Below, one piece after another: positions 635 to 31,678 of a DNA stretch of 39,148 bases (its first letter is position 1; each line of letters starts with the position of its first letter). The stretch spans positions 1-39,148 of the forward strand of contig JBEKTY010000067.1 of the NCBI GenBank assembly GCA_049515555.1, written 5' to 3'. The stretch is from Thermoguttaceae bacterium (lineage in GTDB: Bacteria > Planctomycetota > Planctomycetia > Pirellulales > Thermoguttaceae). Position numbers and translations under genes: made by a program. Under the pieces are notes generated by a model, which was not told the DNA's origin, made no database searches, and saw only the letters and a program-made list of their open reading frames with translations.

Positions 635-2653
635 ATGTACCGGAACTTGGCGGGGTTGTCGGTTTCTCTGGTGCTGCTGGGCCTGTGCACATGGGCCGCC
701 GGGGCGGAGTCCTACCCGCCCGACCGCGACGCACCCGGCGACGCCATGATCCAAGCCTATCTGGCAAGGGAAACGGAGAAGATCGAGTCCGATTTCCTGG
801 CCGGCGTCACTACCGGTCCGCAGTGGGACGAGCGCAGAGCGGAGTACCGGGCCGAATACTTTTACATGCTGGGCCTGGCGCCACGGCCTGAAAAAACGCC
901 GCTGCGGGCGACCATCACCGGCACGCTGTCCCGCGACGGTTACACGGTCGACATGATCCATTACCAGAGCCGCCCGCGGCTGTATGTGACCGGCAATCTG
1001 TACCGCCCCGCCGACGTGCCGCCGGGCCGGCGGCTGCCGGCCGTGCTCTACGCCTGCGGCCACTGGAACCAGGGCCGCTCCGGCAACAAGACGGCCTGCC
1101 AGTCGCACGGCATCTGGCTGGCCAAACATGGATACATCTGCCTGGTGGTGGATTCGCTGCAGTTGGGCGAGATCGCCGGCATTCACCACGGCACCTACCG
1201 CGAGGGCCGCTGGTGGTGGCAGTCCCGCGGCTACACGCCGGCGGGCGTCGAATGCTGGAACGGCATGCGCGGCATCGACTACCTCGCCGGCCGGACGGAC
1301 GTCGACCCGCAGCGGATCGGCGTAACGGGCATCAGCGGCGGCGGGGCGGCCACCTTCTGGATCGCCGCCGCCGATGAGCGGGTCAAGGTGGCCGTGCCCG
1401 TCAGCGGCATGGCCGATCTCCGCTCCTACGTTTCCAATCGCGTAATCAACGGCCACTGCGACTGCATGTTCCTGTACAACACGTTTCAATGGCCGTGGAC
1501 GCGGATCGCGGCCCTGGTGGCCCCGCGGCCGCTGCTGTTCACCAACAGCGACCAGGACGGCATCTTTCCCATGGACGCGAACCGCCGTGTGATCGAGCGG
1601 CTGCGGCGGCTGTATGCCCTGTGCGGCGCGCCCGAGCGGGTCGACGCCTTCGTCAGCCAGGGTGGTCACGCCTACCGGGCCGACATTCGCCAGGCCGCCT
1701 TCCACTGGCTCAACGCGGCCCTGAAAGACGATCCCCGGCCGGTGGCCGACAGCGAGAGGGACCTCGTCAGCGGCGAGGGAAACAACCAGCATTACCCGAT
1801 CGAGCCCGAGCGGCTGCGGGTCTTTCCGCACGATTCGGACCTTCCTAAGGACGAGCTCAATACGCAGATCGACCGGCAATTCGTGCCCATGGCACGGGTC
1901 GAGCCGCCGGCCCCGGGCGGGCTGGCGGCCTGTCGGGCGGCGCTAAAGGCCGAGCTCCGCCGAGTGACGTTCCGCGCGATGAGCGAGCGGGTGCCGCCCG
2001 CCCGCACAATCGAGCCTGCCCAGGGCGAGCTGCTCCGCCTGGAAAGCGAGCCGGGAATCGAAGTCGGCTTGCAACCGGCGCCCCCCGCCCCGGCCGGCAA
2101 GGCCACCCGGCTGCTCATGGTCGTCCGCAACGCCGACGGCCGGCCACCGCTTTCCGACTGGCTGGGCCGGGTCCGCCTCTCGGGCGACGAGGTCTGGCTG
2201 TGCGCGGGGCGGGGCGTGGATCGCACCCGCTGGACCCGCAAGAACCCGCCCAACTACGTCGAGCGGGCGCACGCCCTGCTAGGGCGTACGGTGGATAGCG
2301 GCCGCGTGTGGGACGTGGCGGCCGCGGCCCGCTTCCTGCATGCCCGGCACGGCGGTCAACTGCCGGTCTACGTGGCCGGCGAGGGCCCGGCCGCCGTGCT
2401 GGCGGCCTACGCCGCGCTGTGGGAGCCCGAGATCGCCGGCGCGGTGCTGGGCCGCCCGCCGCTCAGTCACATGGACCCCGAGGCCCCGCCGCTACTGAAC
2501 GTGCTGCGCGTCTGCGACATTCCCGACGTGCTGGGCATGCTCGCCCCGCGGCCGCTGACGGTCTATGCCGGGCAGGCCGCGGCCTTGGACAAGGTGGCCG
2601 CCATCTACAAGGCCGCCGACGCCGCCGGCAAGTTCGCCCGCCAGGACGAATAG
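635..2653 (+). CDS. Secreted alpha/beta-hydrolase (acetyl-xylan-esterase / dienelactone-hydrolase-like) with a C-terminal extension
   Basis: The ORF frame runs 422-2653. The internal ATG at 635 gives a signal-peptide-like N-terminus MYRNLAGLSVSLVLLGLCTWAAGAE. A GISGGG nucleophile elbow (GxSxG) and downstream D/H residues are typical of esterase/peptidase alpha/beta folds. Confidence 0.85.
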   Translation: MYRNLAGLSVSLVLLGLCTWAAGAESYPPDRDAPGDAMIQAYLARETEKIESDFLAGVTTGPQWDERRAEYRAEYFYMLGLAPRPEKTPLRATITGTLSRDGYTVDMIHYQSRPRLYVTGNLYRPADVPPGRRLPAVLYACGHWNQGRSGNKTACQSHGIWLAKHGYICLVVDSLQLGEIAGIHHGTYREGRWWWQSRGYTPAGVECWNGMRGIDYLAGRTDVDPQRIGVTGISGGGAATFWIAAADERVKVAVPVSGMADLRSYVSNRVINGHCDCMFLYNTFQWPWTRIAALVAPRPLLFTNSDQDGIFPMDANRRVIERLRRLYALCGAPERVDAFVSQGGHAYRADIRQAAFHWLNAALKDDPRPVADSERDLVSGEGNNQHYPIEPERLRVFPHDSDLPKDELNTQIDRQFVPMARVEPPAPGGLAACRAALKAELRRVTFRAMSERVPPARTIEPAQGELLRLESEPGIEVGLQPAPPAPAGKATRLLMVVRNADGRPPLSDWLGRVRLSGDEVWLCAGRGVDRTRWTRKNPPNYVERAHALLGRTVDSGRVWDVAAAARFLHARHGGQLPVYVAGEGPAAVLAAYAALWEPEIAGAVLGRPPLSHMDPEAPPLLNVLRVCDIPDVLGMLAPRPLTVYAGQAAALDKVAAIYKAADAAGKFARQDE

Positions 2654-2666
2654 GCACCATTTAATT

Positions 2667-3671
2667 CTATCGGGGCTGCTGCTGGACCACCTCGATGGCC
2701 GCCAGCATGTTCTCCAGCGGCACGTCGCCTTCGACATCGTGGGCGGGGGCGAAGATATAGCCGCCCTCGCGCCCCAGTGCCACGAGGCGGCGGGCCTCGG
2801 CCCGCACCTCTGCCACCGTGCCGAAGGGCAACGTCCTTTGGGTCGACAGCCCGCCGTGAAAGGCCAGCCGTCCGCGGTAACGTGGCAGCAAGCTGTAAAC
2901 GTCCATCACCTCGGGCTGGAAGGGGTTGAAGCAGCTCAGGCCGATATCGAGCAGGTCGTCGAACAACTCGTCGACGTCGCCGCAGGAATGGATCATTACG
3001 AACTTGCCCGCTTGCCGCACCGCGGCGTACATCCGCTTCAGTTGCGGCAGGATGAATTCCCGCCACAAGCGCGGACCCATTTGCAAACCGTGCTGCTGCC
3101 CCCAGTCGTCGCCGAAGTACACGGCGTCGATGTCGTGCTTCAGGGCCTCGCGGAGCTGGGCGATGTTGTAGTCGGCAATGCGGCCCAACAAATCGTGGAC
3201 GAAGCGGGGCGCGTCGTAGAAATCCATCAGCAACTGTCCCATGCCCCGCAGGGTCCACGCCCGCTCGTACAGCGAGAAGCCGATCTGGAACACCCGGAAG
3301 CGGTCGGGAAAGCGGGCGATCCCGGCCGCTATGCCGGCGAAGATGCGGGGATCGAGCGGATCGGGAAACTCGTAGCCGGCCAAGCTGGGCCGGGCCAGCA
3401 CTTGCCCTTCGACATTGCCGATGTCCTTATCGACGCTCCGGTCCCAGACCACGCCGAACACGTCTTGCACGCGATCATGGCCCAACTCGCTGAAGAAACC
3501 GATGTCGCTGCCGAGCTTCAGCAGGTGATTCTCCAGCGGGACTTCGATGTCCGGGCAGCCGTAGTGCCGCTCGAGCTTCTCCCGGGCTTCCTTGGTAAAA
3601 CCCATCGACCAAGGGACGTACGGCGGCCGCTTCCCTTCCAGAACCAGGTGGATGACGTCGCGTTTCTGCAT
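2667..3671 (-). CDS. Uroporphyrinogen decarboxylase (URO-D) family protein
   Basis: 334-aa ORF. The organisation matches URO-D/MtaA-like TIM barrels: a conserved C-terminal block IHSCGDVDELFDDLLDIGLSCFNPFQP...LAFHGGLSTQ and an N-terminal PYVPW region. Confidence 0.8.
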   Translation of the reverse strand: MQKRDVIHLVLEGKRPPYVPWSMGFTKEAREKLERHYGCPDIEVPLENHLLKLGSDIGFFSELGHDRVQDVFGVVWDRSVDKDIGNVEGQVLARPSLAGYEFPDPLDPRIFAGIAAGIARFPDRFRVFQIGFSLYERAWTLRGMGQLLMDFYDAPRFVHDLLGRIADYNIAQLREALKHDIDAVYFGDDWGQQHGLQMGPRLWREFILPQLKRMYAAVRQAGKFVMIHSCGDVDELFDDLLDIGLSCFNPFQPEVMDVYSLLPRYRGRLAFHGGLSTQRTLPFGTVAEVRAEARRLVALGREGGYIFAPAHDVEGDVPLENMLAAIEVVQQQPR

Positions 3672-3688
3672 GAAAGTCAGCGTGGCGT

Positions 3689-3850
3689 GCGGTTAGGAAC
3701 CGCGAAAGAGTGCCTTGAGCAAGTTCCAGCGACGGTGGCACGTCCCTGAGCGCAGCGAAGGGCGTGGTTCTTCGCACCTCGCCACGCCCTTCGTCCCTCA
3801 GGGCGTGCCACCCCAGTTGGTCGACTTATCTCCTCGCGGTTCCTAACCGC
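3689..3850. repeat. Family-A palindromic MITE/REP-like element, copy 1. Core GGTGGCACGTCCCTGAGCGCAGCGAAGGGCGTG ... CACGCCCTTCGTCCCTCAGGGCGTGCCACC, flanked by 15-bp terminal inverted repeats gcggttaggaaccgc / gcggttcctaaccgc
   Basis: Inverted repeat read directly. The core recurs at 9164-9301, 14686-14798 and 28749-28856, with a 15-bp fragment at 6158-6172. The element is intergenic between the Hsp20 3' end and the URO-D-like start. Confidence 0.8.
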
Positions 3851-3887
3851 AGGGGCGTGAACGATTACAGATCCTCCGAGCCAGGCG

Positions 3888-4358
3888 TTAGCTCGTCTGA
3901 ATCTGGATCTTCCTGACTTCGGGCTTCTTCTCCTCGGGCAGTTGCAGCTTGAAGGTCAGCGTCAGGATGCCGTCCTTAAGCTCCGCCACGGGCTCGCCCT
4001 CGATGTTCTCCGGCAGACGAAGCTGCCGCTTGAACGAGCCGTAGGACAGCTCGCGGATGTGATACTGCTCCGCGCTCTTCTCGCCGTTGGTCTTGCTCGT
4101 GCCCGAGATCTCCAGAACGCCCTCCGGCAAAATCTGGACGTTGATCTGCTCGGGCGGGTAGCCCGCCACGGTGGTCTTCACCACCAGGTGGCCGTCGTTG
4201 GTCGTGTAGGCGTCCAGCGGCGGGAAGTTGGCCTTGCTCTTCACCCCGTCGGTGAAGTCCTGGCCGAACACGTCGTTGAGCATGCGGTCGAGTTGCCGCG
4301 AGAGTGGGCCGAACAGCTCGTCCCGGGAAACAGGGCGCAATCGCAAAGTACCGAACAT
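3888..4358 (-). CDS. Hsp20/alpha-crystallin family small heat-shock protein
   Basis: The ORF frame runs 3888-4472. An internal ATG at 4358 is preceded by a strong SD (aggagg). The protein starts MFGTLRLRP...; the alpha-crystallin domain pattern (GHLVVKTTVAGY ... ILPEGVLEISG ... AELKDGILTLTF) is recognisable. Confidence 0.9.
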   Translation of the reverse strand: MFGTLRLRPVSRDELFGPLSRQLDRMLNDVFGQDFTDGVKSKANFPPLDAYTTNDGHLVVKTTVAGYPPEQINVQILPEGVLEISGTSKTNGEKSAEQYHIRELSYGSFKRQLRLPENIEGEPVAELKDGILTLTFKLQLPEEKKPEVRKIQIQTS

Positions 4359-4446
4359 ACAAACCTCCTCTTGACCCCTTGGGTCGGTTAGGCCGCTCCA
4401 CGTGGGACACGGCCGACTGTCCACCCCGGTTTGGGCATGGACCCTT

Positions 4447-4467
4447 AAGCTGCCAACTTGGCAGCTT
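4447..4467. promoter_or_regulatory. 10-bp perfect palindrome aagctgccaa-c-ttggcagctt in the hsp20 upstream region; candidate operator
   Basis: Read directly. It lies about 90-110 nt upstream of the hsp20 start on the minus strand. It matches neither CIRCE nor the sigma-54 consensus. Confidence 0.3.
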
Positions 4468-4563
4468 TTCAACGAGAATCATAAAGGAGCAACCTCCGTG
4501 CCAAACCCGGCGCCTTTTCCACAGCGGTTCGACACGCTACAATCGCGCCCGCAATCAACAGTC

Positions 4564-6018
4564 ATGTTAACGCTCATCAACAGCAATCGCATGCTGCCGC
4601 CGATCGCCCCGCTCGGGCTCGATTATGTGGGGGCGGCCGTGCGCCAAGCGGGGATCGAGGTCGATTTGCTCGACCTGTGCCTGGCAGACAATCCGGCCGG
4701 CGCGGTGCGGCACTACTTCCACACTCGGCAGCCCGAGTTGATTGGCGTCTCGTTTCGCAACATCGACGATTGTTTCTGGCCCAGCGGGGCGTGGTTCGTC
4801 CCGGACCTCGGGCAACTCGTGGCCCGTGTGCGCGGGCTATCGGGTGCGCCCGTCGTGCTGGGCGGCGTCGGATATTCGATCCTTGCCGCCGACGTGCTCC
4901 GCGCCTCCGGGGCCGATTTCGGCATCCGCGGCGACGGCGAACAGGCCGTCGTGGAATTGCTCGCCGAGTTGCGAGGCCCAAGGCGCTGGGATCGGGTGAG
5001 CGGGCTGCTGTGGCAAGAGGATGGCATAGTGCACGAGAACCGCCCGGCCTGGCCTGGCACACTGGCCGTACCGGCCGCCCGCGACATGGTAGACAACCCG
5101 ACGTATTTCCGCCTGGGCGGGCAGATCGGCGTGGAGAGCAAGCGCGGCTGTAGCCGCCAGTGCAGCTATTGCGTCGATCCGCTGGCCAAGGGCCCGACCG
5201 TCCGCCTGCGGCCGCCTTCCGACGTGGCCGGCGAGATGGAAGGCTTGCTCCGGCAGGGGATCGACGTATTCCACCTCTGCGATGCGGAGTTTAACCTGCC
5301 GCCCGGCCACGCCCGCGACGTCTGCGACGAGCTGATCCGCCGCGGGATTGGTTCCCGTAGCCGGTGGTATGCCTACCTTGCCGTCCTGCCCTTCGACGCG
5401 GACCTGGCAGGGCGGATGGCCCGGGCGGGCTGCGTGGGCATCAACTTCACCAGCGATTCGGCCAGCCCCGCCATGCTCGCCAGCTACGGGCAGCCGCATC
5501 GGCAGGCGGACCTCCGCGCGGCGATCGGGCACTGCCGGCAGCACGGCATTGCCGTCATGTGCGACCTGCTCCTGGGCGGTCCCGGCGAGACCGTCGACAG
5601 CGTTACGCAGTCCATCCGTTTCTTTCAGCAGGCCGGGCCGGATTGCGTGGGGGCGGCCCTGGGGCTTCGGCTCTATCCGTCAACGCGCATCACGGCCACG
5701 GTCGCCCAGGAAGGCCCGTGGGAGAGCAACCCCAGCATCCGCCGCCATTACGAGGGCCCGATCCATCTGCTGCGGCCCACGTTCTATATCTCAAGCCTGC
5801 TGGGCGAGCGGCCGGCCCGGTTGGTACGCGATCTGGTCGCCGGCGACCCGCGCTTCTTCGAGCCGGAAGAGGAAACCCCGGCCGCCGATCGGCCCGGCAT
5901 CGCGGGCGACCACAACTACAACGCCAACCGATCGTTGGCCAATGCAATACGTTCCGGCGCCCGGGGTGCATACTGGGATATTCTGCGAACTGGAAAAGGT
6001 GTCAGGAACCGTTTCTGA
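4564..6018 (+). CDS. B12-binding-domain radical SAM protein
   Basis: The ORF frame runs 4402-6018. The internal ATG at 4564 gives MLTLINSNRMLPPIAPLGLDYVGAA..., an N-terminal B12-binding-like Rossmann segment. The radical SAM motif CSRQCSYC (Cx3Cx2C) is present. Confidence 0.85.
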   Translation: MLTLINSNRMLPPIAPLGLDYVGAAVRQAGIEVDLLDLCLADNPAGAVRHYFHTRQPELIGVSFRNIDDCFWPSGAWFVPDLGQLVARVRGLSGAPVVLGGVGYSILAADVLRASGADFGIRGDGEQAVVELLAELRGPRRWDRVSGLLWQEDGIVHENRPAWPGTLAVPAARDMVDNPTYFRLGGQIGVESKRGCSRQCSYCVDPLAKGPTVRLRPPSDVAGEMEGLLRQGIDVFHLCDAEFNLPPGHARDVCDELIRRGIGSRSRWYAYLAVLPFDADLAGRMARAGCVGINFTSDSASPAMLASYGQPHRQADLRAAIGHCRQHGIAVMCDLLLGGPGETVDSVTQSIRFFQQAGPDCVGAALGLRLYPSTRITATVAQEGPWESNPSIRRHYEGPIHLLRPTFYISSLLGERPARLVRDLVAGDPRFFEPEEETPAADRPGIAGDHNYNANRSLANAIRSGARGAYWDILRTGKGVRNRF

Positions 6019-6114
6019 AGAAGGTGTCAGGTGAAAAAGGTGTCAGGAACCGTTTCGATGCACCTCCGTCGGAACAGGCGTCGGCACCGCGCGGATTACA
6101 TCGTTCCTGACACC
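5994..6114. repeat. Cluster of short repeats: aaaaggtgtcaggaaccgtttc twice (5994-6015, 6035-6056), a shorter gaaggtgtcagg between them, and an inverted copy cgttcctgacacc at 6102-6114
   Basis: Read directly. The first unit overlaps the last 7 codons of the radical SAM CDS (KGVRNRF*). Confidence 0.7.
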
Positions 6115-6333
6115 GGCCTTGATCGTAACCTTGCCCAATGCTAGCTGCGCTGGCATCGGGTGGCACGTCCCTAGAAGAAAGTGCCGATGCCGAACGTGTG
6201 CCTTGTCTTCAGCGTCGATTACGTCAATACGTTTGAAATGCTCGAAGACCTGAACGTTAAGTTCATCTTGAGCACCAAGAATCGCCGAGGAAAATGAATT
6301 GCTAGGGGGTTCTAATCCCGACGCCGGATCGTC

Positions 6334-7323
6334 TTACGACAGTTGCAGGCCCAAATCGAGGCGGCGGGCGTTTTCCAGGGCCCGCGCTGCGGCGCATAAA
6401 TCCTGAATCGCCACGCCGACCGACTTGAACAGCGTAATCTCGTCGGCGCGGCGCCGGCCCGGCGACCGCCCCAGCACGACTTCGCCCAGCTCGGTGCCGA
6501 AGTGCGACTGTTCGATCAGGCCTTGCTGCAAGGGTTGCAGCAAATCGCCCGCTTCAGCCAGTGCCGCGGCCCGATGGTCTACGACCACGCGGGCCCGGCA
6601 GACGACGGCGGCCGGGATCTCCGCCATGTCGCGCCGGTAGGCGCCGACGGCATTGACGTGCGCGCCGGCGGGCAGCTCGCCCTCGGCGAAGACCGGCCGG
6701 CAGGAGGAGGTGGCAGTGCAAACCACGTCGGCACCGGCCAGGTTCCTGGCGGGTGTGTCGGCACGCTCGACCGGCACACCCAGGCAATGGCTCATCTCGG
6801 CGGCAAAGCGATCCGCGGCAGACGGGTCGGCGTCATAAACGGATGCCCGGCGAATGGCCCGCACGCGGCACACTGCTTCCAGTTGCGTGCGTGCCTGCAC
6901 GCCGGCGCCGAAAACGGCCACCGCCGCGGCCTCGGATCGGGCCATTAGATCGGTGGCCAGACCGGACGCGGCGCCGGTGCGGATGGCGGTGAGGCTCGTG
7001 CCGTCCATCACCGCCAGATGCGCCCCGCTGACGCCGTCGATCAGGACCACTAGCGCCTGCACTGTCGGCAGCCCGCGCCGCGGATTGTCTGGAAACACCG
7101 TAACGGTCTTCAAGGAGAACATTTTTAGCGCGAGGGAGTGACAGGGCATAACCAGAAGGTCGCCATGCGCGTCCGGCGCTGGCAGACATTCGCGCTTCGG
7201 CAGCGTCACCTGCCCGCTGGACAACTGTGCGAAGGCTTCGCGCATGGCTGTAATCGCGTCGGTCATCGGCAGCGCGCGGCGCACGTCCGCCGCGGAAAGA
7301 TAGAGCAGTGGCGTGGTGTTCAT
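6334..7323 (-). CDS. Ornithine cyclodeaminase / mu-crystallin family protein (NAD(P)-dependent imine reductase / alanine-dehydrogenase-like)
   Basis: 329-aa ORF. It has the Rossmann motif AVFGAGVQA and OCD-family length and architecture. Its start overlaps the stop of the upstream gene by 4 bp (ATGA). Confidence 0.85.
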   Translation of the reverse strand: MNTTPLLYLSAADVRRALPMTDAITAMREAFAQLSSGQVTLPKRECLPAPDAHGDLLVMPCHSLALKMFSLKTVTVFPDNPRRGLPTVQALVVLIDGVSGAHLAVMDGTSLTAIRTGAASGLATDLMARSEAAAVAVFGAGVQARTQLEAVCRVRAIRRASVYDADPSAADRFAAEMSHCLGVPVERADTPARNLAGADVVCTATSSCRPVFAEGELPAGAHVNAVGAYRRDMAEIPAAVVCRARVVVDHRAAALAEAGDLLQPLQQGLIEQSHFGTELGEVVLGRSPGRRRADEITLFKSVGVAIQDLCAAARALENARRLDLGLQLS

Positions 7324-8903
7324 GGCAATTTACGACTTGCGCATGGGGCGCCGCAGCCGCCGGGTTTCAAAGCCCGGGCCGACGGCGCGACGGCAAGGCC
7401 TCCCTTGGATGTGCAACGCAATTCCGCGGGCATGGCCAGCCCCACGGCGTAAACGGCGTCGATCGTCTCGTCGAGCGGGATGAAGTTCGTGTACCCGCCG
7501 AGCCCAAGGTCGGCATTGACAAAGGCGCCGGCGGCGGCGGCCGCGTTGCGGGTGTGACAGGGAATCTCGACCATGCCCTGCACAAGGTCGCAGACGCTGC
7601 CCATGGTGTTCTGAAAACTGATCGCGGCCGCATCGCAGGCCTGGCGGGCCGTGCCGCCGACGGCGTCCACGACCGCGGCGGCGGCCATGGCGCCGGAGGC
7701 CCCGATCTCCACCTGGCAACCCGCCACCTCCGCGGCAAAGGTTCCGCGGATCGCCAAGATCGTGCCGACGGCGCCGGCCGCCAGCAGGGCCAGCCCGATT
7801 TGCTCGCGGGTCAACGAGCGCTCCTCGGCCAGCGTCACGAGCACGGCCGGAATAACGCCCGCGGAGCCGCCGGTGGGCGCGGCGCACACCACGCCCATCG
7901 CGGCATTCACGTGCATCACGGCCAGGGCCCGTGCCGCCGCCCGCGTGTGCGGGCTCCGCGCGGAAAGGCGCGATTCCGCCTCCGCCTGGAAAATGGCCCC
8001 GGCACAGGCGGGCAGCAGTTGCAGGCCGGTGAAGTTCGGGTCCAGCCCGCTCTGGACCGATCGCGCCATGATGTCGTAGCGCCGCAGCATTTCCGCCATA
8101 ACGTCTGCCGGGCTGATGCCCAGCAACTGTGCCTCGTAGGCCAGCGCCAGTCGGCCCAGCGAAAGGCCCAGTCGTTCGGCGCGCTGCACCATCTCGGCCG
8201 CACTTGAGAACTGGGGCTGGCCCGCTTGCACGAAGTAAACCGGCGTGGATTCCCACACCCGGGCGCTCGGGTCCCTGGCACGCAGCTCGCCGCGGAAGGT
8301 CGCCGGCAACGCGGCCTTGCGTCGGGCCGTCAGTCGCACCCGGCCATTCTCGCCAGAGTCGATTGTGCTTTCCAAGACCTGGCCATCGCCTGCGAGCAGC
8401 CCGCCGGCGGCGCCGGCTGTATCGGCAGAGACTTCCAGCAGCGTCTCGTAAGCCGCACCGTTGAACCGCACCGGGCGGCCGTTCAGGCTGGTAATCTGCA
8501 CTTCCCCGCCGCCGATGGAGCGTGCCGCCAGACGCAATGTAGAACCGTCGGCCGCAGTGAGAGCCATTTCCACCGTGTTCGGATGGTCCGGCTGGGCAAG
8601 CTTCCGGACCTCGAAGCTGATTTCCATCCCGGCCTGCGGCGCGTCGCCCAGCGCAGTAAAAAACGATTCGTCGGTCAACGGCTTGCCCAGCAGTCCCATG
8701 GCAAAGCCGCGGTCGGCCCCCTGCGCGGCGTAGGTGACGGAGTAAGAGCCGGCCGGGTCGAAGGCCAACGCCGCCCGGCGCGGCGCGCCTCCCAGAATCG
8801 AACGGGCCATGCAGGCGATGTGAAACGCGCCCGCCGTGTGCGAGCTGGACGGCCCGCGCATCACCGGACCGAGCACATGATTGAGGATACTGACGGCCCT
8901 CAT
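7320..8903 (-). CDS. sdaA: L-serine dehydratase, iron-sulfur dependent, single-chain (beta+alpha fused)
   Basis: 527-aa ORF. The N-terminal ...GPVMRGPSSSHTAG... motif matches the beta segment and ...PTGGSAGVIPAVL... the alpha segment. It is translationally coupled to the downstream OCD-family gene. Confidence 0.9.
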   Translation of the reverse strand: MRAVSILNHVLGPVMRGPSSSHTAGAFHIACMARSILGGAPRRAALAFDPAGSYSVTYAAQGADRGFAMGLLGKPLTDESFFTALGDAPQAGMEISFEVRKLAQPDHPNTVEMALTAADGSTLRLAARSIGGGEVQITSLNGRPVRFNGAAYETLLEVSADTAGAAGGLLAGDGQVLESTIDSGENGRVRLTARRKAALPATFRGELRARDPSARVWESTPVYFVQAGQPQFSSAAEMVQRAERLGLSLGRLALAYEAQLLGISPADVMAEMLRRYDIMARSVQSGLDPNFTGLQLLPACAGAIFQAEAESRLSARSPHTRAAARALAVMHVNAAMGVVCAAPTGGSAGVIPAVLVTLAEERSLTREQIGLALLAAGAVGTILAIRGTFAAEVAGCQVEIGASGAMAAAAVVDAVGGTARQACDAAAISFQNTMGSVCDLVQGMVEIPCHTRNAAAAAGAFVNADLGLGGYTNFIPLDETIDAVYAVGLAMPAELRCTSKGGLAVAPSARALKPGGCGAPCASRKLP

Positions 8904-9159
8904 GGTTTGTAACCCTTGGGCTCATCCTCTTGCCGTAGGCGACGAATGCACATGTTACCCATTCTATCATATTGGGCAACTGGCTTCGTTCGATAGCGGA
9001 AGCTTTAGGCCGTTGTGCAGGAAATCGTCGAAGTGTTCCCCGAAGCGCCCGTCGCTGCAATAGAGTGCGGCGGCGCGAATGCGGCGCTCATCGAATCGCA
9101 CCGCACTTTCGTAAACTGTAGTGTCATCTCGGGGATTCACGTTCCGATTATACCTCTGC

Positions 9160-9305
9160 GGAGGGTGGCACGTCCCTGAGCGCAGCGAAGGGCGTGCTTT
9201 CCAGGCCCGCCACGCCCTTCGTTCCTCAGGGCGTGCCACCCAAATTGATCAACTTGTTCTTCGTTCCTCAGGGCGTGCCACCCAAACTGATCAACTTATT
9301 CTGTC
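9160..9305. repeat. Family-A element copy 3, whose right arm carries a 41-bp internal tandem duplication (9219-9260 and 9261-9301)
   Basis: The core ggtggcacgtccctgagcgcagcgaagggcgtg ... cacgcccttcgttcctcagggcgtgccaccc was read directly. It is followed by a near-identical second copy of cgttcctcagggcgtgccacccaaa(t/c)tgatcaactt. Confidence 0.8.
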
Positions 9306-9314
9306 GCTTACGGC

Positions 9315-10950
9315 TTAGCCCCGATCTTTTGGCGGCACGTCGCCCACGGGCTGGCCGTCGGTCGTCGGTTTGTGCCGGACGCCCGCCAACGTGGCGAGCG
9401 TTTCGGGGATTTCCACGCCGCCGATGTCGCGCATGACCTGCATCATGGGCGGCAGGGTGCGGGACATATTGTGCAGCCAGTTGGCCGTGGCGCTTTGCCC
9501 GGCGGCCGGGTTGCTCTCCCAGACCACGACCTTGTCGAACTTGATGTTCGAGATGGCCTTGGCCGAGGCTTCCACGAGGTGGTCGAAGTGCTCGAGCATG
9601 AGCAATTGGAAGGCCTGCTGGGCGCCGCCGCAGGCCTCGATGATCTGCTGCAGACCTTGGCCTTTCTTGGACAGGATTTCGAACTGGCCGCGGGCTTCGG
9701 CTTCGAGCTTGGCGAAGATGGCGGCGGCCTCGCCTTCGGCCTCGATCCGCCGCTTGGCGGCCTCGGCGGCGGCCTCGACCTCGATCTTGGCCTTGTCGGC
9801 CTTGGCCGGGGCCTCCAAGGCCGCGCGGCGCTCGGCCTCGATCCGCTGGGCCTCGGCCAGGGCCGCCTTGGCGCGGGCGAAGTGCTCGGCCTCCAACACG
9901 GCGGCCTCGGCCTGCACCTTGCGGGTTTCGCCCGTCTGGTAGGCTTCGGCCTTCTTGACCTGCAAGCCGGCCTGCGAGGCGGCCACGTCGGCCTTGGCCA
10001 GGTTCTCCCCTTCCACCGCCCGGGCCTCGGCATCGGCCAGCTTGACGCGCATCTCGCGCTCGGCGTCCTTCACCTGGGCCTGCTTCTGGAAGGCGGCCGA
10101 CTGCTCGCCCACCTGCTGCTCCTTATCGAGCTCGGCCACGCGGACGGCTTGCTCGCGGGTGGCCTCGCGCGTGCCGATCTCGCGGACCTTGTGGGCGTTG
10201 GCCACCTGCACCGCCTTCTCGCGCTCGGCGTCGGCCACGCGGACCTCGCCCATCTTCTCGTTGTCCGCCACGTCGCCGCGGGCCTTCTGGATCGCCTGCG
10301 AAGCCGCCTTCTGGCCGATGGCCTCGATATAGCCCGATTCATCGGTTATGTCGGTGATGTTCACGTTGATCAGCACCAGCCCGATCTTGCGGAGCTCGCC
10401 CTCCAGCGAGTTCTGGATGGCTTCCAGGAACTTCTCGCGGTCACGGTTGATGTCTTCGATCTGCATCGAGGCGATCACCTGCCGCAACTGCCCGAAAATG
10501 ATGTCTTCCGAGCGCTTGGCGATTTCCGAGCGGGGCATCCCCAGCAGGCGGATGGCCGCGTTCTGCATCAACTCCGGCGTGGTGCCGACCGCCACCGTGA
10601 ACACGCTGGGGACGTTGACGCGGATGTTCTCCATGGATAGCGCGCCGCGGAGCGGGATCTCGATCTGCATCGGCTCGAGGTTCAGCCAGGCGAAGTCCTG
10701 GATCAGCGGAACGATGAACTTCGCCCCGCCGTGGATGCAGGTGGCCGCCTCGTGCCCGCGCCCCGACTTCCCGTAAATCACCAGCACCCGGTTGCTGGGG
10801 CAGCGCTTGTAGCGTTTGGCCAGGAGCATCACCAACGAGAAGGCGACGAAGGTCGCCAGCACGAAGATCGCCCCCAGCCAAACCTCCAAGGGCGCGCTAT
10901 CGGCGAAGCAGGGCGTAATGCGAAACCAGATGCCGGGCGAGCTGAACATG
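9315..10950 (-). CDS. Flotillin / SPFH (band-7) family protein (YqiK/FloT-like)
   Basis: The ORF frame runs 9315-11108. An internal ATG at 10950 follows an aaggag RBS, giving MFSSPGIW... with an N-terminal TM helix. The SPFH domain is followed by a long Ala/Glu/Lys-rich coiled coil, the typical flotillin architecture. Confidence 0.85.
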
Positions 10951-10992
10951 GCCGCTCCTTTGTTATTCAAAGGTCTGTCAAAGGGAGAACTG

Positions 10993-11733
10993 TCAAACGC
11001 CCTCTCCCGTTGGAAGAGGAATGTTGTTCTTCGCCACGGCTTGGACCTGCACGGTATCGGAGCCGAGGACTTTGGTGACCACGACCGTGGCCCCGCTGGG
11101 GATCGCATCGCCGGAGGTAGTCGCCAGGTACTCCATGGTGCGGTTCTGGAGGTTGATCTGGATTTTGCCGGCGCCCTTGTGCTGGGCGGGAATGCGGAGG
11201 TAGACGGTGGCCTGCCGGCCCACGGCGCGATCGATCCGTACGGTGCCGTCCGCCCGCAGCGAGCGCATGCCGCGGAGCATGGCGTAAACAGCGTACATGG
11301 CGCCCAGGCCGGCCGCGGCCGCGATCGAGAGCGTGGTCAGGGGCGGGCACTCGGCGGCCTGGGCGGCCAGGCCCGCCAGGCCGAAGAAGGCCAGCGCCGC
11401 GACGACCGTGCGCAGCGAGAGCACCTGGAACAACCACGTCGAGCCGTGAGCCGCCCGGCTGGCGGCCGAGTGCTGGAACTGGGCCTGGGCTTCGGCGTGC
11501 CCGGCGGCGGCCGAGCCATCGTGAGCCACGTCACCGTGCACCTCGCCCGGCGTGAAATCGTGGTCCCCCTCGCCGGCGCCGAAATCGTGGTCCGCCCCGC
11601 CCAGGTCGTGCCCGAAGTCGTGGGGCGTGTCAACACCCATGGCGTCGCCGCCCAGGCCGACCAGGGCCAAGAGGAACTGCAGGACCAGGACCGTAGCCCC
11701 CACTGCGGCACAGACCACAAAGACGGCGGTCAT
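10993..11733 (-). CDS. NfeD-like (YqiJ-like) membrane protein partner of flotillin, with a His/Asp-rich repeat segment
   Basis: 246 aa with a strong gaggagg RBS. The N-terminal TM segment is followed by a HDFGHDLGGADHDFGAGEGDHDF repeat, a second hydrophobic block, and a C-terminal beta-rich ~70 aa (GTVRIDRAVGRQATVYLRIP...VVVTKVLGSDTVQVQ). This is consistent with an NfeD OB-fold. It lies 42 bp upstream of flotillin. Confidence 0.6.
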   Translation of the reverse strand: MTAVFVVCAAVGATVLVLQFLLALVGLGGDAMGVDTPHDFGHDLGGADHDFGAGEGDHDFTPGEVHGDVAHDGSAAAGHAEAQAQFQHSAASRAAHGSTWLFQVLSLRTVVAALAFFGLAGLAAQAAECPPLTTLSIAAAAGLGAMYAVYAMLRGMRSLRADGTVRIDRAVGRQATVYLRIPAQHKGAGKIQINLQNRTMEYLATTSGDAIPSGATVVVTKVLGSDTVQVQAVAKNNIPLPTGEGV

Positions 11734-11971
11734 CGCTACCTCCTCGCTGAGGAGCTTCGGAACGTACAGGTATTCGCCCGCCGATAAGGAGTATTGGGCG
11801 ATCGACCCGCGGTCAGCGGCCGAAAAGGAATCCGCCTTCTCCGAATCTCAGGGTCCCTTTATTATCATCGAAGGGCCGCCCATTGCAACTACACCCGACA
11901 ATAGAATACACTGAGCCACAAGCGGCGTACATGGCCACAGTTGCCGGTCGTCTTTCCAGGAGAGGAATCGC

Positions 11972-13405
11972 GTGATGCGGACACTCAGGCGGGCTTGCCG
12001 GATAGCCACGACGTGCCGGATCGTGCTGGCGATTGGGGCCGGGCTGTCCGGGGCCCTTGCGGCCGGCGCCGGGACGACTGCCCACAGCGAGCCGCCCGCC
12101 CCCCGCCGCGTGTGCATCGGCCACGGCTCGGGATACTTGCGCTACGCCGACGCACAGGCCACGCTCAAGCTGCAACCAGGCGACACGCTCTACGTCAATC
12201 CCGGCGCCTACAGCGGCCTTTCGCTGGGGAACCTGTCGGGCACCGCCGCGTGCCCCATTACCGTCAAGTGCGACCCGCAGGCCGTCTTCACCACCGTCGT
12301 CCCGCAGGTCAACGAGTTCCCCAACGTCGCCCACGTGCGATTCGAGAACTTCCGCTTCGAGACGTACAAGAGCACCTGCATGAAGATCACCGGCCACAGC
12401 CACGATCTGCTGTTCAGGAACTTCAACGTCAAGGACGCCTCGGGCTACAGTTTCCACGTGTACGACCCGGCCAAGGTCTTCGACGGCAGCCGGGAAAGCA
12501 CCTTCTACAACTTCAAGTGGGAGAACGTCGTGGTAGACGGCAAGACCGACGGCGCCGCCATAAGCAACTCGAACTACAGCCTGTCGAACATGATCTCCGT
12601 GGTGCTGGATTTCGAGGTCTGCCGATGCACCTTCCGGCACTTCGACAATCGCGTCCAGGCCTTCCCGGTCATCGACTTGCTGCGCTGTTTCAACCTGCAC
12701 GTGCACGAGTGCAATTTCAGCGACATGGGCATGGCCGACTCCCCGATCGGTCACAATGTGTGCATCGCACTGGCCGGCTATGTGCGGGCATACGGCAACC
12801 GCTTCACCCGGCAGTGGGCCAACGACGTGCGCGTGTGGCCCATGAAGCTCAACGCCCTGGGCTACAACGGGCCACAGGCCGTCAACCGCTTCTACAACAA
12901 CATCAGTTGGGAAAAGCGGAAGTACCCCATGTACGAGCACAACCACGTCCAGCAGGCCGATATCGACAAGTCTGCGGGCTACCTTTCCCGCACGGCTTCC
13001 GAGATCTGCTTCAACACGCTATACAGGTCGCGGAAGGCGGCCAGCAGCAAAGACCCCTACTGCGCCACCTTGGTCGATGTCTACGGGCCGGACGTCACGA
13101 TCAAGCATAACCTGATCATCGAACCGGAAGCCGACGTGCCGCTGGACCCGAAGCACAACTACGTCTACCACCTGGGCGCAGGCCCGCAAACGGGCCTGAC
13201 CGTGGCCAACAACCTCGTCTTCCGGACCTGGGACGAGGCCGGCCTGGTGGATACCAAGACATTCATGCCGTCAAAGACCAGCCCGGTGCTAGACGCGGCC
13301 ACCGGGCGGATCGACTACATCACCCGCGACTTCTACAACCACGAGCGGTACGTGGGGACCGCGGCCGACGTGGGCGCCGTCGAGCGGCAGAACACCGCGG
13401 AATAG
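11972..13405 (+). CDS. Secreted hypothetical protein, possibly with a right-handed parallel beta-helix fold
   Basis: 477-aa ORF with a signal-peptide-like N-terminus (RIVLAIGAGLSGALAAGAG). It has repeated N/H-rich short beta-strand-like segments. No confident family assignment. Confidence 0.55.
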   Translation: MMRTLRRACRIATTCRIVLAIGAGLSGALAAGAGTTAHSEPPAPRRVCIGHGSGYLRYADAQATLKLQPGDTLYVNPGAYSGLSLGNLSGTAACPITVKCDPQAVFTTVVPQVNEFPNVAHVRFENFRFETYKSTCMKITGHSHDLLFRNFNVKDASGYSFHVYDPAKVFDGSRESTFYNFKWENVVVDGKTDGAAISNSNYSLSNMISVVLDFEVCRCTFRHFDNRVQAFPVIDLLRCFNLHVHECNFSDMGMADSPIGHNVCIALAGYVRAYGNRFTRQWANDVRVWPMKLNALGYNGPQAVNRFYNNISWEKRKYPMYEHNHVQQADIDKSAGYLSRTASEICFNTLYRSRKAASSKDPYCATLVDVYGPDVTIKHNLIIEPEADVPLDPKHNYVYHLGAGPQTGLTVANNLVFRTWDEAGLVDTKTFMPSKTSPVLDAATGRIDYITRDFYNHERYVGTAADVGAVERQNTAE

Positions 13406-13451
13406 GCGGCGGTCACGGCGTTAATAGGCAAACCATGAAGGAGACCGAGGG

Positions 13452-14627
13452 ATGAGACTTGTCTTCAGTTGCTCTCTGGCGATGACGGCCGTGATGGTCT
13501 TGGCCTTTACGGGCCGCACGGCCGGCAGCGAGATCACCGTCAAGGGCATGGTGCTCAACAACGTCCACACGGGGCAGACGGGCAAGAGTGTCTTTGTCTA
13601 CGCCCTGGACGGCACGCCCGAGATCAAGGCCGAAGTGGAACGCATCATGGCCCACTACTATCCGGACAAGGGGCTGGACGGCGACGCGGCCCGCACGCTT
13701 CAGGATCAATTCACCGCCCGGCTGAAATACTTCATCACCGGGCCGCACGTCGACGAGCTGCACGCGAAAGCCACCTACGGCGCGCGGCAGTGCACGGCCC
13801 TAACGGGGACGGTTGAAGAGAAAGACGGCCAGCGGTGGCTGGCGGTGAGCAAGTATGCCGATACCACGCTGCAATATCCGGCCAAGATGTTGACGCCTGA
13901 CAAGCCCCTGGTGATGCCCGATAAGCCGCCGTTGGTCGTCAAGATCGACCACAAGCTGTCGCTGCGGTGCATCTGGGCGCCGCCCGGCAAGTTCTTCATG
14001 GGCGAGCCTTACTACCAGTGCCCGCACTGGCAGGAGGCCCCGCCGCACATGGTGACGCTCACCCGGGGCTTCTACATGGCCGAGCATCCGATTACCCAGG
14101 AGATGTACGAGGCGGTGGTGGGCCGCAATCCCAGCCGAAAGACAGCGGCCCTTGCGCCCGTCAATGTTTCCTGTGCCGACATGTACGCCTTCTGCCGGCG
14201 CTTGTCGCAAACCGCCGGGCGGCCGGTGCGGGTGCCCACGGCCGCCGAATGGGAATACGCGGCCCGCGTGGGCACGTCCAACCCGCCGCTCCTGCAAAGA
14301 TACCAGGATCAGCAGGGCGCTTCCGGGGAGCCGATGCTGGTCAAGGCCAAACCACCCAATGCCTGGGGCTTCTACGATATGCTGACGGGCGGGTGGGAGC
14401 GCGTCAGCGACAGCTCCGCGCAACTCGATCGCCAGGACACGGTGGATCCACGGCACATCCCGCCGGAAGACCAGGCCCAGGCCGATCAGGGCCGCAAACA
14501 CGGGCACATCGCCAAGGGCAACTCGCAATATGCGCCCAGCGAAATCGAGTACATCACCAGCGATCCCGGCCCCGAGACGACATACCCCGGTGTTATCCGC
14601 TTCCGCGTGGTGCTCGAAGAGCCATAG
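13452..14627 (+). CDS. Formylglycine-generating-enzyme (FGE/SUMF1) domain protein, secreted
   Basis: RBS aaggag, then a signal peptide. The C-terminal ~230 aa show the FGE-sulfatase pattern: PPGKFFMGEP...HMVTLTRGFYMAEHPITQEMYEAVVG...RVPTAAEWEYAARVG...NAWGFYDMLTGGWERVSD. Confidence 0.8.
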   Translation: MRLVFSCSLAMTAVMVLAFTGRTAGSEITVKGMVLNNVHTGQTGKSVFVYALDGTPEIKAEVERIMAHYYPDKGLDGDAARTLQDQFTARLKYFITGPHVDELHAKATYGARQCTALTGTVEEKDGQRWLAVSKYADTTLQYPAKMLTPDKPLVMPDKPPLVVKIDHKLSLRCIWAPPGKFFMGEPYYQCPHWQEAPPHMVTLTRGFYMAEHPITQEMYEAVVGRNPSRKTAALAPVNVSCADMYAFCRRLSQTAGRPVRVPTAAEWEYAARVGTSNPPLLQRYQDQQGASGEPMLVKAKPPNAWGFYDMLTGGWERVSDSSAQLDRQDTVDPRHIPPEDQAQADQGRKHGHIAKGNSQYAPSEIEYITSDPGPETTYPGVIRFRVVLEEP

Positions 14628-14633
14628 GAAAAG

Positions 14634-14661
14634 TAGCAGGCACACTCCGTGTGCCTGCTTA
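14634..14661. terminator. Hairpin agcaggcacac-tccg-tgtgcctgct, 7 nt after the FGE-domain gene stop. It is a candidate terminator shared with the convergent gene
   Basis: 11-bp perfect stem read directly. Related copies of the same motif occur at 18201-18278. Confidence 0.45.
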
Positions 14662-14667
14662 CAATAA

Positions 14668-14798
14668 CTTGAGCAAGTTCCAGCGAGGGTGGCACGTCCC
14701 TGAGCGCAGCGAAGGGCGTGCTTCTTCGCACCGCGGCACGCCCTTCGTCCCTCAGGGCGTGCCACCCTAATTGGTCAACTTATTTCCTCGCGGTTCCA
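14668..14798. repeat. Family-A palindromic element copy 4
   Basis: gagcaagttccagcga + gggtggcacgtccctgagcgcagcgaagggcgtg ... cacgcccttcgtccctcagggcgtgccaccctaattggtcaacttatttcctcgcggttcc. It sits between two convergent genes. Confidence 0.8.
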
Positions 14799-14859
14799 AA
14801 GCAGCCCGCACGCCCCGTGTGCGGACATGCGGCACACGGCCGGCGGCCGCTGCAAGGGC

Positions 14860-15810
14860 TCAGTCTTTGGCTTCTGCCTGATCGAGATTATGCTTGTCGA
14901 TGACGACCGGCGTGAGGTACACCTCTTTGGATGGCGGCGTCTTCCCGTCGCGAAGCTTGGCCACGAGGAACCCCAGGGCCTTGCGGGCTTGCTGCCCGGG
15001 AAACTGCTCGATGGAAGCCGTCAGCCGGCCTTGCTTGATGCACGCGGCCGCGTCGGGAATGACGTCGTAGCCCACGCTAACGACTCGCCCGGGCGGCATG
15101 CCATGGGCCGCCATGGCTTCCAGGGCGCCCAGCACCATCTCGTCGTTGGCGGCATACAGCGCCTGGAAATCGCCGTGCACCTGGAGCAGGTTCTCCATCA
15201 CCGACTGACCCTTGGCCCGATAGAATTCGGCGCTCTGGCTGGCCAGGAGCCGGAGCGGGGAGGCGGCCAGCACCTCCTCGAAGCCGCGCTTGCGATCAAT
15301 CGCCGGCGAGGCCCCGGGCGTCCCCTCCAGCTCGATCACCGCGCCCTTGCCGCCGAGTTTCTGGAGGATATATCGGGCCGCGATCCGGCCGCCTTCGACA
15401 TTGTCGCCCCCCACGTGAACCAGCACGTCGCCGCCTTCCACTTTGCGATCGACGGTGGCCAGGGGGATGCCGGCGCGGTTGAGGGCCTCCACCGCGGGCA
15501 CCAAGGCCGCGGACCCGATCGGCGCCATCACGACGCCGTCCACCCCCTGGGCAATGAAGTCCTCAACGATCGCCATCTGCTTGGCTGCGACGTCTTCAGC
15601 ATCGGCGGCGATCAGCCTCACGCCAAGCTTCGCCGCCTCGTCCGCAACGTGCTTCTTAATGCAGATGAAGAAGGGGTGCGAGAGCGAGGGGACCGTCAGA
15701 CCGATGACGATCTGCCGTTTCTCGGTCGGACTCCGCCGACAGCCGGCAAGCCCAAAGCCAACGGCCAGCGCCAGAGCTGCCAAGCCCAGAAGCATCGCAC
15801 GTCTTTTCAT
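14860..15810 (-). CDS. Sugar ABC transporter substrate-binding lipoprotein (RbsB/LacI-type periplasmic binding fold); orphan, with no adjacent permease or ATPase
   Basis: The ORF frame runs 14860-15948. The internal ATG at 15810 gives MKRRAMLLGLAALALAVGFGLAGC, a lipobox. The periplasmic-binding-protein type-I pattern follows. The upstream extension of the frame reads through a repeat element and is not counted. Confidence 0.8.
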   Translation of the reverse strand: MKRRAMLLGLAALALAVGFGLAGCRRSPTEKRQIVIGLTVPSLSHPFFICIKKHVADEAAKLGVRLIAADAEDVAAKQMAIVEDFIAQGVDGVVMAPIGSAALVPAVEALNRAGIPLATVDRKVEGGDVLVHVGGDNVEGGRIAARYILQKLGGKGAVIELEGTPGASPAIDRKRGFEEVLAASPLRLLASQSAEFYRAKGQSVMENLLQVHGDFQALYAANDEMVLGALEAMAAHGMPPGRVVSVGYDVIPDAAACIKQGRLTASIEQFPGQQARKALGFLVAKLRDGKTPPSKEVYLTPVVIDKHNLDQAEAKD

Positions 15811-15847
15811 GGCATCTACCTTCTTACCGGAGTTTTGCAAGTTGGGG

Positions 15848-16007
15848 TGAGGACGATACAAGTGGTCCCCCTCTCCCTCCGGGAGAGGGCCGGGGTGAGG
15901 GGAACCTGTGTTGGTCACGAAAAATGGGAAAACAGTATCCTCACCCATTCCCCCTCACCCTAACCCTCTCCCGGAGGGAGAGGGGACCGACCAATCCGCA
16001 ATTTGCA
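15848..16007. repeat. Family-B palindromic MITE-like element copy 1 (tgaggac ... caatttgca), with ~38-bp inverted arms containing the ccctctccc-N3-gggagaggg palindrome and ggggtgagggg
   Basis: Arms read directly: ggtccccctctccctccgggagagggccggggtgagggg / cccctcaccctaaccctctcccggagggagaggggacc. A second, roughly 85% similar copy by eye lies at 35811-35966. Confidence 0.8.
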
Positions 16008-18194: not shown

Positions 18195-18200
18195 GCGAAG

Positions 18201-18278
18201 GTAACAGGCACACTCCGTGTGCCGTCCGCCATGCCTTTGTCCGCTTCAGCGGACGGCACACGGAGTGTGCCTGCTACC
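18201..18278. promoter_or_regulatory. Nested palindrome in a divergent intergenic region: two inverted copies of (a)ggcacac-tccg-tgtgcc flanking an inner hairpin gtccgc...gcggac
   Basis: Read directly: gtaacaggcacactccgtgtgccgtccgc catgcctttgtcc gcttca gcggacggcacacggagtgtgcctgctacc. Confidence 0.5.
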
Positions 18279-18406
18279 TTCATGCCGTAAACGGTTACCG
18301 TAAAGACAATACCCCCACGATTACGAACTGTTCATCCTAACCTCGCGCCCTTACGGCTGCAACGCAGGAGAGAGTGCGAAGGAAAGGACTCGCGGCGCGG
18401 AGACGA

Positions 18407-21801: not shown

Positions 21802-21809
21802 AAGGTTGT

Positions 21810-21887
21810 GGTGGGGCTCGCTAGCGCTCGACCCACCCTACATCTTCGCCTCCTCGTAGGGTGGGTCGAGCGCTAGCGAGCCCCACC
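21810..21887. terminator. Perfect 32-bp inverted repeat with 14-nt loop between convergent genes (candidate bidirectional terminator)
   Basis: ggtggggctcgctagcgctcgacccaccctac atcttcgcctcctc gtagggtgggtcgagcgctagcgagccccacc, read directly. Confidence 0.7.
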
Positions 21888-21895
21888 AGAACCCG

Positions 21896-26846: not shown

Positions 26847-26886
26847 CCGATATGAAAAGAAAACCACCCAAGGACATCGAGGACCA

Positions 26887-27690: not shown

Positions 27691-27727
27691 TCCCCAAATC
27701 CCTATACCGTTTCAGGAGGATTCCCAA

Positions 27728-28729: not shown

Positions 28730-28745
28730 CATTTAACCACACTCC

Positions 28746-28856
28746 CGCGGGGTGGCACGTCCCTGAGCGCAGCGAAGGGCGTGGTTTGCGGGCCTGCCAC
28801 GCCCTTCGTCCCTCAGGGCGTGCCACCCAATTGTCAAACTTGTTCTTTCGTGGGCC
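28746..28856. repeat. Family-A palindromic element copy 5, inserted in a short operon spacer and flanked by a perfect 20-bp direct repeat ttagcatttaaccacactcc (28725-28744 and 28857-28876; +/-1 nt)
   Basis: Core and flanking direct repeats read directly. The left direct repeat contains the stop codon of the upstream gene. The right one sits immediately 5' of the ggagg RBS of the next gene. Confidence 0.8.
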
Positions 28857-28890
28857 CTTAGCATTTAACCACACTCCGGAGGCACGGATC

Positions 28891-31614: not shown

Positions 31615-31678
31615 AGCTTCCTCGCCTACCCACAATTGTACCCTGATGATCGGGTTTGCCAAGTATAACATTCCACAG

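Follow-up and report, generated by a model that had tools for sequence, protein, structure and literature searches.

REP/REPIN-RAYT systems, such as the BIMEs of Escherichia coli with TnpA-REP and the REPINs of Pseudomonas fluorescens, belong to the selfish DNA of bacteria and are built of short palindromic units, located outside genes and bearing an unpaired GT[AG]G foot. The units are arranged as singlets, in clusters or as inverted doublets, the latter giving rise to long hairpins with a less conserved spacer, and some of them are heterodimers with different loops. A REPtron is a Y1 (HUH) transposase gene with the same units on its flanks. Such systems are the subject of Bertels & Rainey 2011, Nunvar 2010 and Ton-Hoang 2012. 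Two surveys (PMC3733652, PMC6006769) cover REPs, REPINs, REPtrons, GTGG feet and double-foot REPs; in them, GTGG feet are reported for marginal groups only and planctomycete REPs are mentioned only in passing. In such systems the REP stems co-vary with the divergence of the RAYT (PMC6006769).

The repeat family analyzed here (family A) was found in a 39-kb stretch of DNA (39,148 nt, G+C content 65%) from a Thermoguttaceae bacterium, hereafter referred to as the window. It resembles REP/REPIN-RAYT systems in all of the features listed above and differs from them in (i) its hosts, which are Planctomycetota (Pirellulales/Thermoguttaceae), (ii) the foot, which is GTGG and not GTAG, and (iii) the extra outer palindromic arms, 30-45 nt long, carried by some of its subfamilies. 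Family A is very probably a REPIN family, whose units are the recognition hairpins of a RAYT clade of Pirellulales/Thermoguttaceae.

As stated in the original prediction, the window contains four full copies of family A and one 15-nt fragment (Table 1). A pattern search of the window located the 33-nt left arm (GGTGGCACGTCCCTGAGCGCAGCGAAGGGCGTG) without mismatches at positions 3734, 9164, 14688 and 28751, in each case on the plus strand, and the 30-nt right arm at positions 3783, 9211 (1 mismatch), 14737 and 28798; no arm matches were obtained in 100 shuffles of the window. For the 15-nt fragment (GGGTGGCACGTCCCT), approximately 7e-5 chance matches are expected by our own arithmetic, and truncated heads resembling it are stacked beside the RAYT genes of loci L098, L100, L104 and L142. 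The 15-bp terminal inverted repeats noticed earlier in copy 1 were located at 3689-3703 and 3836-3850, where they form the outermost part of a much longer palindrome. The outer arms of this copy are shared with copy 3 (3714-3846 vs 14668-14800, 93% identity over 133 nt). In copy 2 the right half is duplicated in tandem (42 nt; 9217-9265 / 9259-9307), the duplicate half-unit and tail occupying positions 9259-9301, and copy 4 is flanked by a 20-bp direct repeat, TTAGCATTTAACCACACTCC (28727-28746 and 28859-28878). DNA folding revealed that all four copies can form long hairpins (-37 to -43 kcal/mol, z = -6 to -7.8). The amino acid motif TPFAALRDVPPSLELAQ, previously linked to spurious ORFs, corresponds to the minus-strand translation of the left arm and outer arm (copies 1 and 3), and was also present in spurious ORFs of L098 and L054.

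Table 1. Family A elements identified in the window, their DNA folding and their flanking genes.
Feature	Position	Strand	Description	ΔG (kcal/mol)	z	Flanking genes	Basis of gene assignment
Copy 1	3689-3850	+	most complete copy; 162-bp palindrome	-42.7 (positions 3701-3848)	-6.1	URO-D-like gene 2667-3671 (-) / hsp20 3888-4472 (-)	GC3 calls and Pfam
Copy 1, outer left arm	3689-3733						
Copy 1, left REP unit	3734-3766						
Copy 1, spacer	3767-3782						
Copy 1, inverted right REP unit	3783-3812						
Copy 1, outer right arm	3813-3850						
Truncated REP head	6158-6172	+	GGGTGGCACGTCCCT; foot and 5' half of stem, nothing more				
Copy 2	9163-9301	+	REP doublet 9163-9243; short right tail, no left outer arm	-38.6	-6.5	serine dehydratase 7320-8903 (-) / Band_7 gene 9315-11108 (-)	GC3 calls and Pfam
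Copy 3	14664-14800	+	REP doublet 14687-14767; outer arms homologous to those of copy 1, left outer arm truncated	-43.4	-7.8	convergent: FGE-sulfatase 13452-14627 (+) / periplasmic binding protein 14860-15948 (-)	
Copy 4	28750-28858	+	REP doublet 28750-28830; right outer arm alone (AATTGTCAAACTTGTTCTTTCGTGGGCCC)	-36.9	-6.0	AP_endonuc_2 gene 27728-28729 (+) / isomerase-like gene 28891-30231 (+)	

Each arm is itself a small hairpin, in which the unpaired GTGG foot is followed by an 8-bp stem, CACG(N)CCCT / AGGGCGTG; the unit hairpin of the family reads GTGG-CACGNCCCT. Indeed, when single units were subjected to folding, the arms folded alone and left the GGGTGG foot unpaired. The unit loop is 9-11 nt long, or 3 nt in the short-loop type. 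The complete element is an inverted doublet of such units, with the feet directed outwards and a spacer of 12-16 nt, which is the arrangement that defines a REPIN, and all four window copies are doublets of this kind that form long hairpins. Among the matches listed, 99 of 125 strand-specific core matches are accompanied by an inverted partner arm (symmetric elements being counted on both strands), and the foot and stem are conserved across 22 MAGs.

The arm variants, whose 1-nt bulge is mis-registered by MAFFT, were compared by direct tabulation. The loop of the left unit is GAGCGCAGCGA, and that of the right unit is GAGGGACGA in three of the window copies and GAGGAACGA in copy 2. In other genomes the commonest right unit is fully symmetric, and the type with the GAGGAACGA loop is also found; in a third type the stem is altered on both sides (CACGCCCA...TGGGCGTG). 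Further two-sided changes (CACACCCA...TGGGTGTG and CACACCCT...AGGGTGTG) were identified in other genomes. All such changes preserve the pairing of the unit stem but would break the long hairpin, which favors the small unit hairpin over the long one. Some subfamilies additionally carry outer palindromic arms, e.g. CCCGCGCAnAAATAACyTG... in other MAGs. This outer-arm motif is almost never found alone and adjoins a doublet in 26 of its 29 occurrences, while many copies in other MAGs are bare REP doublets devoid of outer arms.

A scan of species-representative genomes detected the 23-nt core in at least 99 stretches, belonging, among the matches listed, to 22 assemblies, all of them from Planctomycetota (Pirellulales, Thermoguttaceae and 'Planctomycetaceae'). 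Three MAGs contain at least 19-21 exact-core stretches each, and singlets and stacked partial heads occur alongside doublets in other genomes. Confinement of the core to the window, which would have spoken against the original prediction, was thus not observed, and the family is interspersed and does not result from local duplication. The genes flanking the window copies are unrelated housekeeping genes, which likewise rules out a segmental duplication. A search of the whole window against Rfam gave no matches at the gathering thresholds; the weak matches were to generic eukaryotic miRNA-hairpin models alone (21-31 bits vs thresholds of 60-137). The unit sequence of family A, absent from Rfam and not printed in any of the papers searched, is new. 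The window sequence itself was also found in JGI, ENA and Logan assemblies.

According to GC3-based gene calls, combined with Pfam assignments for the neighbors of all four copies, the window copies are all intergenic, as had been proposed, and so is the 15-nt fragment. Each of the four copies adjoins at least one gene 3' end, at a distance of 14-61 nt from a stop codon. The further proposal that the elements lie at gene 3' ends holds only in this sense: copies 1, 2 and 4 are also located upstream of the next co-directional gene (the gap between the end of copy 1 and a start codon is 17 nt), and 9 of 55 classifiable copies elsewhere are situated between divergent genes (crude gene calls), so that the 3'-end position is a tendency at most. 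The tandem, convergent and divergent contexts account for 58, 25 and 16% of these 55 copies, compared to 68, 18 and 15% in the background, a weak contrast obtained with a crude GC3 gene caller. Convergent pairs are mildly over-represented (14/55 copies vs 64/365 in the background; other genomes, crude GC3 calls).

The four copies share the plus orientation in window coordinates, as originally observed, but this pattern has a probability of 1 in 8 by chance and does not generalize. Relative to transcription the orientation is mixed: antisense in copies 1 and 2 and sense in copy 4, with copy 3 lying between convergent genes, and 14 asymmetric copies from co-directional contexts in other genomes comprise 6 sense and 8 antisense insertions. 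Orientation was associated neither with gene strand nor with the GC skew of the surroundings (Fisher p = 0.31, n = 43). An orientation bias indicative of single-strand, lagging-strand targeting was rejected on these two results.

In a motif scan of 3,812 ORFs (the window plus 99 loci), the candidate partner of the elements emerged as a single HUH...Y protein, encoded at positions 1580-2179 (-) of L098 and containing the motifs HVHLLI, WQ and YIHANPV. This protein scored 88.9 bits against the NCBIfam model NF047646 REP_Tyr_transpos (REP-associated tyrosine transposase; cut-off 80) and 26.2 bits against Pfam Y1_Tnp (cut-off 23), and was below the threshold of the IS200 model (20 bits vs a cut-off of 55). 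The only PDB match of the RAYT-clade profile was E. coli TnpA-REP (4ER8), across the HUH and WQ...YIxxNPV regions. The stop codon of the L098 RAYT gene abuts a complete family A doublet plus an extra right unit, and three partial heads are present upstream. Four independent homologs (L100-L104; 63-80% identity) have units on both sides, and one of these loci, L100, also contains the exact 33-mer of the window. The RAYT genes of L200 and L201 are flanked by units in the same manner.

A survey of 80 metagenome RAYT loci extended this association. Units with the family A stem were identified at 14 of the 16 loci whose RAYT shows at least 56% identity, and the unit pattern was found at 0 of the 25 loci of at most 54% identity. 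In three of the latter (L133, L135 and L140), inspection by eye showed that a GGGTG(G/C)CA-type foot is kept beside stems that are different yet paired; two loci of 57-58% identity (L132 and L134) keep the same type of foot with entirely different paired stems. Such retention of the foot and replacement of the stems in distant homologs is, at the level of sequence, the REP-RAYT co-variation expected of these systems. REPtrons are thus present in related genomes, namely at L098, L100-L104, L114-L119, L200, L201 and the 14 of 16 metagenome loci. The motif scan found no RAYT-like ORF in the 39-kb window. As for a RAYT in the window's own genome, the proteins P0006, P0019 and P0032 come from other samples, and 0 of the 80 metagenome loci derive from the sample of the window. 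No recurrent transposase was found beside the elements by clustering of the 3,812 ORFs (the window plus 99 loci), which yielded common paralogous families.

One of these transposases, RAYT P0006, is encoded by 14 contigs with an identical protein sequence. Alignment of L114-L119 showed that its gene lies within a unit of 833-837 bp, 99.3-100% identical and present in at least four contexts, which starts with GGGTGGCACG and ends with CGTGCCACCC, so that its boundaries coincide exactly with a single left unit on one side and a single inverted right unit on the other. The occurrence of a near-identical unit in at least four contexts suggests that it is mobile as a whole, and from its sequence the P0006 unit looks like one that moves as an insertion sequence. 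The doublets of the window, in turn, look like both ends of this REP-RAYT-REP unit joined by a short spacer. It is tentatively proposed that a RAYT linked to the family still transposes as a full IS-like unit (REP foot, RAYT, inverted REP foot; 833-837 bp), a prospect that we rate at somewhat below an even chance. Two copies of the P0006 unit bracket a single 604-aa gene, and others are located beside IS66 and IS4 transposases.

The mechanism probably resembles that of E. coli TnpA-REP and IS200/IS605, the established HUH-Y1 examples. A RAYT encoded once, elsewhere in the genome, would bind the folded single-stranded hairpin together with its GTGG foot, and would cut and rejoin single-stranded DNA. 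Doublets would thereby reach further intergenic sites, where no regular target duplication would arise, and the window copies would be non-autonomous products of this activity. The sequences themselves establish how the elements are built, how widely they occur and that their units accompany RAYT genes. On the analogy with these models, we infer that a RAYT mobilized the copies of the window; an effect of the copies on neighboring genes may likewise be surmised.

Several observations speak against the REPIN reading, among them the lack of a RAYT gene in the window. In some subfamilies, the outer arms beyond the GTGG feet travel with the doublet, a behavior that cutting at the foot alone would not account for, and the 20-bp direct repeat at copy 4 is not expected from a Y1 transposase. 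The 161-nt spacer containing copy 4 is identical in four further contigs from other samples; no empty site or insertion polymorphism was found among the six contigs that encode the identical downstream protein, four of which have this 161-nt spacer and two of which start inside or just after the element. The closest relatives (L111-L113, 81-84% identity) are rearranged, and the junction is not comparable. The gene order is PfkB, DeoC, AP_endonuc_2, copy 4, isomerase in the window (25926-30231) and PfkB, isomerase, AP_endonuc_2, DeoC in L111-L113, with DeoC on the opposite side in L113. The rearranged junction is thus the place where copy 4 and its direct repeat lie, and a rearrangement or repair event is as likely an origin of the repeat as target duplication. 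A degenerate remnant of family A lies directly after the AP_endonuc_2 gene of L113. In L111 and L112, which represent two related MAGs, approximately four tandem repeats of about 100 nt (…CTGCGTGATTCGTG…GATAGCCGCGTGGGC…) occupy positions 4898-5335, between AP_endonuc_2 and DeoC.

The high stability of the hairpins, the proximity of all four window copies to a stop codon (14-61 nt) and the mild enrichment of convergent pairs would also suit RNA elements selected by the host, acting as terminators or as mRNA-stabilizing barriers at 3' ends, with repetition being secondary; in E. coli, REPs do stabilize upstream mRNA. However, T-tracts are absent, and a terminator scan of positions 3000-15500 did not flag any of the three copies located there (copy 4 was assessed by eye). 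The copies do not keep to one orientation with respect to transcription, apparently divergent genes surround 9 of 55 of them, the two-sided stem changes favor the small unit hairpin, and a transposase gene is flanked, and even delimited, by these very units. An origin as host-selected RNA elements is accordingly considered improbable, although an mRNA-stabilizing role, secondary or co-opted, is possible and compatible with the REPIN reading. An intrinsic terminator was rejected specifically, as there is no T run after the stem on either strand. Of the earlier description of the elements as REP-like terminator hairpins, the REP-like part is upheld by the doublets and by the units that bound a transposase gene, while the terminator part fails for want of a T-tract.

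The inverted repeats of copy 1 recall a different class of element, the classical MITE, i.e. a deletion derivative of a DDE insertion sequence that is moved via its terminal inverted repeats and leaves target-site duplications. Such an origin would agree with the ends of many full-length copies elsewhere (...GCGCGGG(C/T)CCTAA or TTAG), with the direct repeat around copy 4 and with the IS1595-type zinc-ribbon protein encoded at 30871-31710. Yet copies 1-3 have no flanking duplication, and the 20-bp repeat of copy 4 is unique, being absent from its subfamily relatives L037 and L042. Moreover, many copies are bare REP doublets without outer arms, no recurrent DDE gene was found beside the element among the 99 loci listed, and the transposase of the sole autonomous element detected with such ends is a Y1 and not a DDE enzyme. 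A DDE-type MITE was rejected on the absence of a fixed-length duplication and on the Y1 transposase of the parent-like element, and this derivation is regarded as very unlikely. The term MITE-like remains apt for a non-autonomous palindromic doublet whose arms are the units bounding a transposase gene, but the partner is of the Y1 (HUH) and not the DDE type. The imperfect palindrome with its conserved bulge, internal loop and variable center, together with the single orientation of the four window copies, is also reminiscent of the attC recombination sites of integrons. This resemblance ends at the absence of the GTTRRRY / RYYYAAC core sites: the copies are flanked by housekeeping genes of 1-2 kb on both strands, lie about 5-14 kb apart without forming a cassette array and have mixed orientation elsewhere, and ORF clustering (the window plus the 99 loci listed) revealed no recurrent integrase nearby. 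Identity with attC sites is effectively refuted by the missing core sites and cassette architecture and can be given almost no credence.

The REPIN reading can be refined by comparison with individual described systems. With the 'double-foot' REPs of TnpA-Y1 subclass 2.4 (PMC6006769), family A shares a 5' GT[AG]G and a 3' complement C[TC]AC on a long hairpin, a RAYT of about 194-199 aa, and the WQ and YIxxNP motifs; the double-foot form is interpretable as two REPs in inverted orientation whose central part has been deleted (PMC6006769). The two differ in the HUH context (EHVH in the family A RAYT vs the published NH[IFV]H) and in the lack of REP insertions inside the family A RAYT gene. A doublet inside a longer palindrome, the latter not found alone, is also known for GTAG-15 of Anabaena variabilis and CGTC-1 of Halothiobacillus neapolitanus (PMC3733652). 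In contrast to these, family A has other sequences and belongs to another phylum, both outer arms are present in some of its subfamilies only, and window copies 2 and 4 carry the right outer arm alone.

The Y1 HUH transposase and the hairpins at the ends are common to family A and IS200/IS605 elements, the 833-837-bp unit of L114-L119 behaves similarly to the latter, and the window copies resemble internal-deletion derivatives of the REP-RAYT-REP unit. The differences are that the L098 protein passes the RAYT model with 88.9 bits but reaches only 20 of the 55 bits required by the IS200 model, and that both ends of the family A unit are inverted copies of one unit, whereas the left and right ends of IS200/IS605 elements are typically dissimilar.

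Several other repeats were noticed in the window. A second REPIN-like palindrome (21804-21893) has 38-nt arms that are 97% complementary, and its GTAG feet face each other over a 14-nt spacer (...CCCACCCTAC / GTAGGGTGGGTCGAGCGCTAGCGAGCCCCACC...); its unit resembles the REPs flanking the more distant RAYT of L134 (GGGTGGCTGGGGTCGACCGTAGGGAGCCCCCAG). Judging from these sequences, the window's genome probably hosts more than one REP family. A third palindromic family, CCCCTCTCCCTCCGGGAGAGGG(C/T)CGGGGTGAGGGG, is represented at 15868-15985, 35830-35946 and 39000-39032 by two full inverted doublets about 20 kb apart and one half copy. A fourth, around GGCACACTCCGTGTGCC, is present at 18197-18281, with half copies at 14630-14655 and 14798-14823 that bracket family A copy 3; a T-rich tail lies behind the half copy at 14635-14659 (-), which was scored as terminator-like. 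At 453-515 there is an inverted repeat of 29 bp whose arms match perfectly around a loop of 5 nt, and a 41-bp tandem duplication of TGGAAAAGGTGTCAGGAACCGTTTC (5991-6056) is located just upstream of the family A fragment at 6158. Near the contig start (79-148), a run of about 18 G is followed by a run of about 16 C, which may be an assembly artefact. The periodicity of about 87-93 nt at 9762-10246, within the Band_7/SPFH gene, probably reflects a repetitive coiled-coil region. The product of the gene at 30871-31710 (-), 279 aa in length, contains the zinc-ribbon domain of IS1595-type transposases (30.7 bits, cut-off 25.4) and shows no link to family A.

The finding opens no new category. Its practical bearing is on annotation and assembly, since the elements create spurious ORFs (TPFAALRDVPP motif) and break short-read assemblies, several contigs starting or ending inside a copy; a family model would tidy the annotation of Pirellulales/Thermoguttaceae MAGs. 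REPIN-RAYT work has been devoted almost entirely to Proteobacteria, and family A is a well-populated family of Planctomycetota. The GTGG foot kept across the RAYT clade, the co-varying stems and the apparently mobile unit together provide a series for studying the evolution of RAYT specificity and the origin of REPINs from IS ends. The most interesting lead is the apparently mobile REP-RAYT-REP unit. If this unit does transpose as a whole, the system would be a living intermediate between insertion sequences of the IS200/IS605 type and the single-copy, domesticated RAYT/REPIN systems of Proteobacteria, and the hairpins of the window would be internal-deletion (MITE-like) offspring of a mobile RAYT unit.
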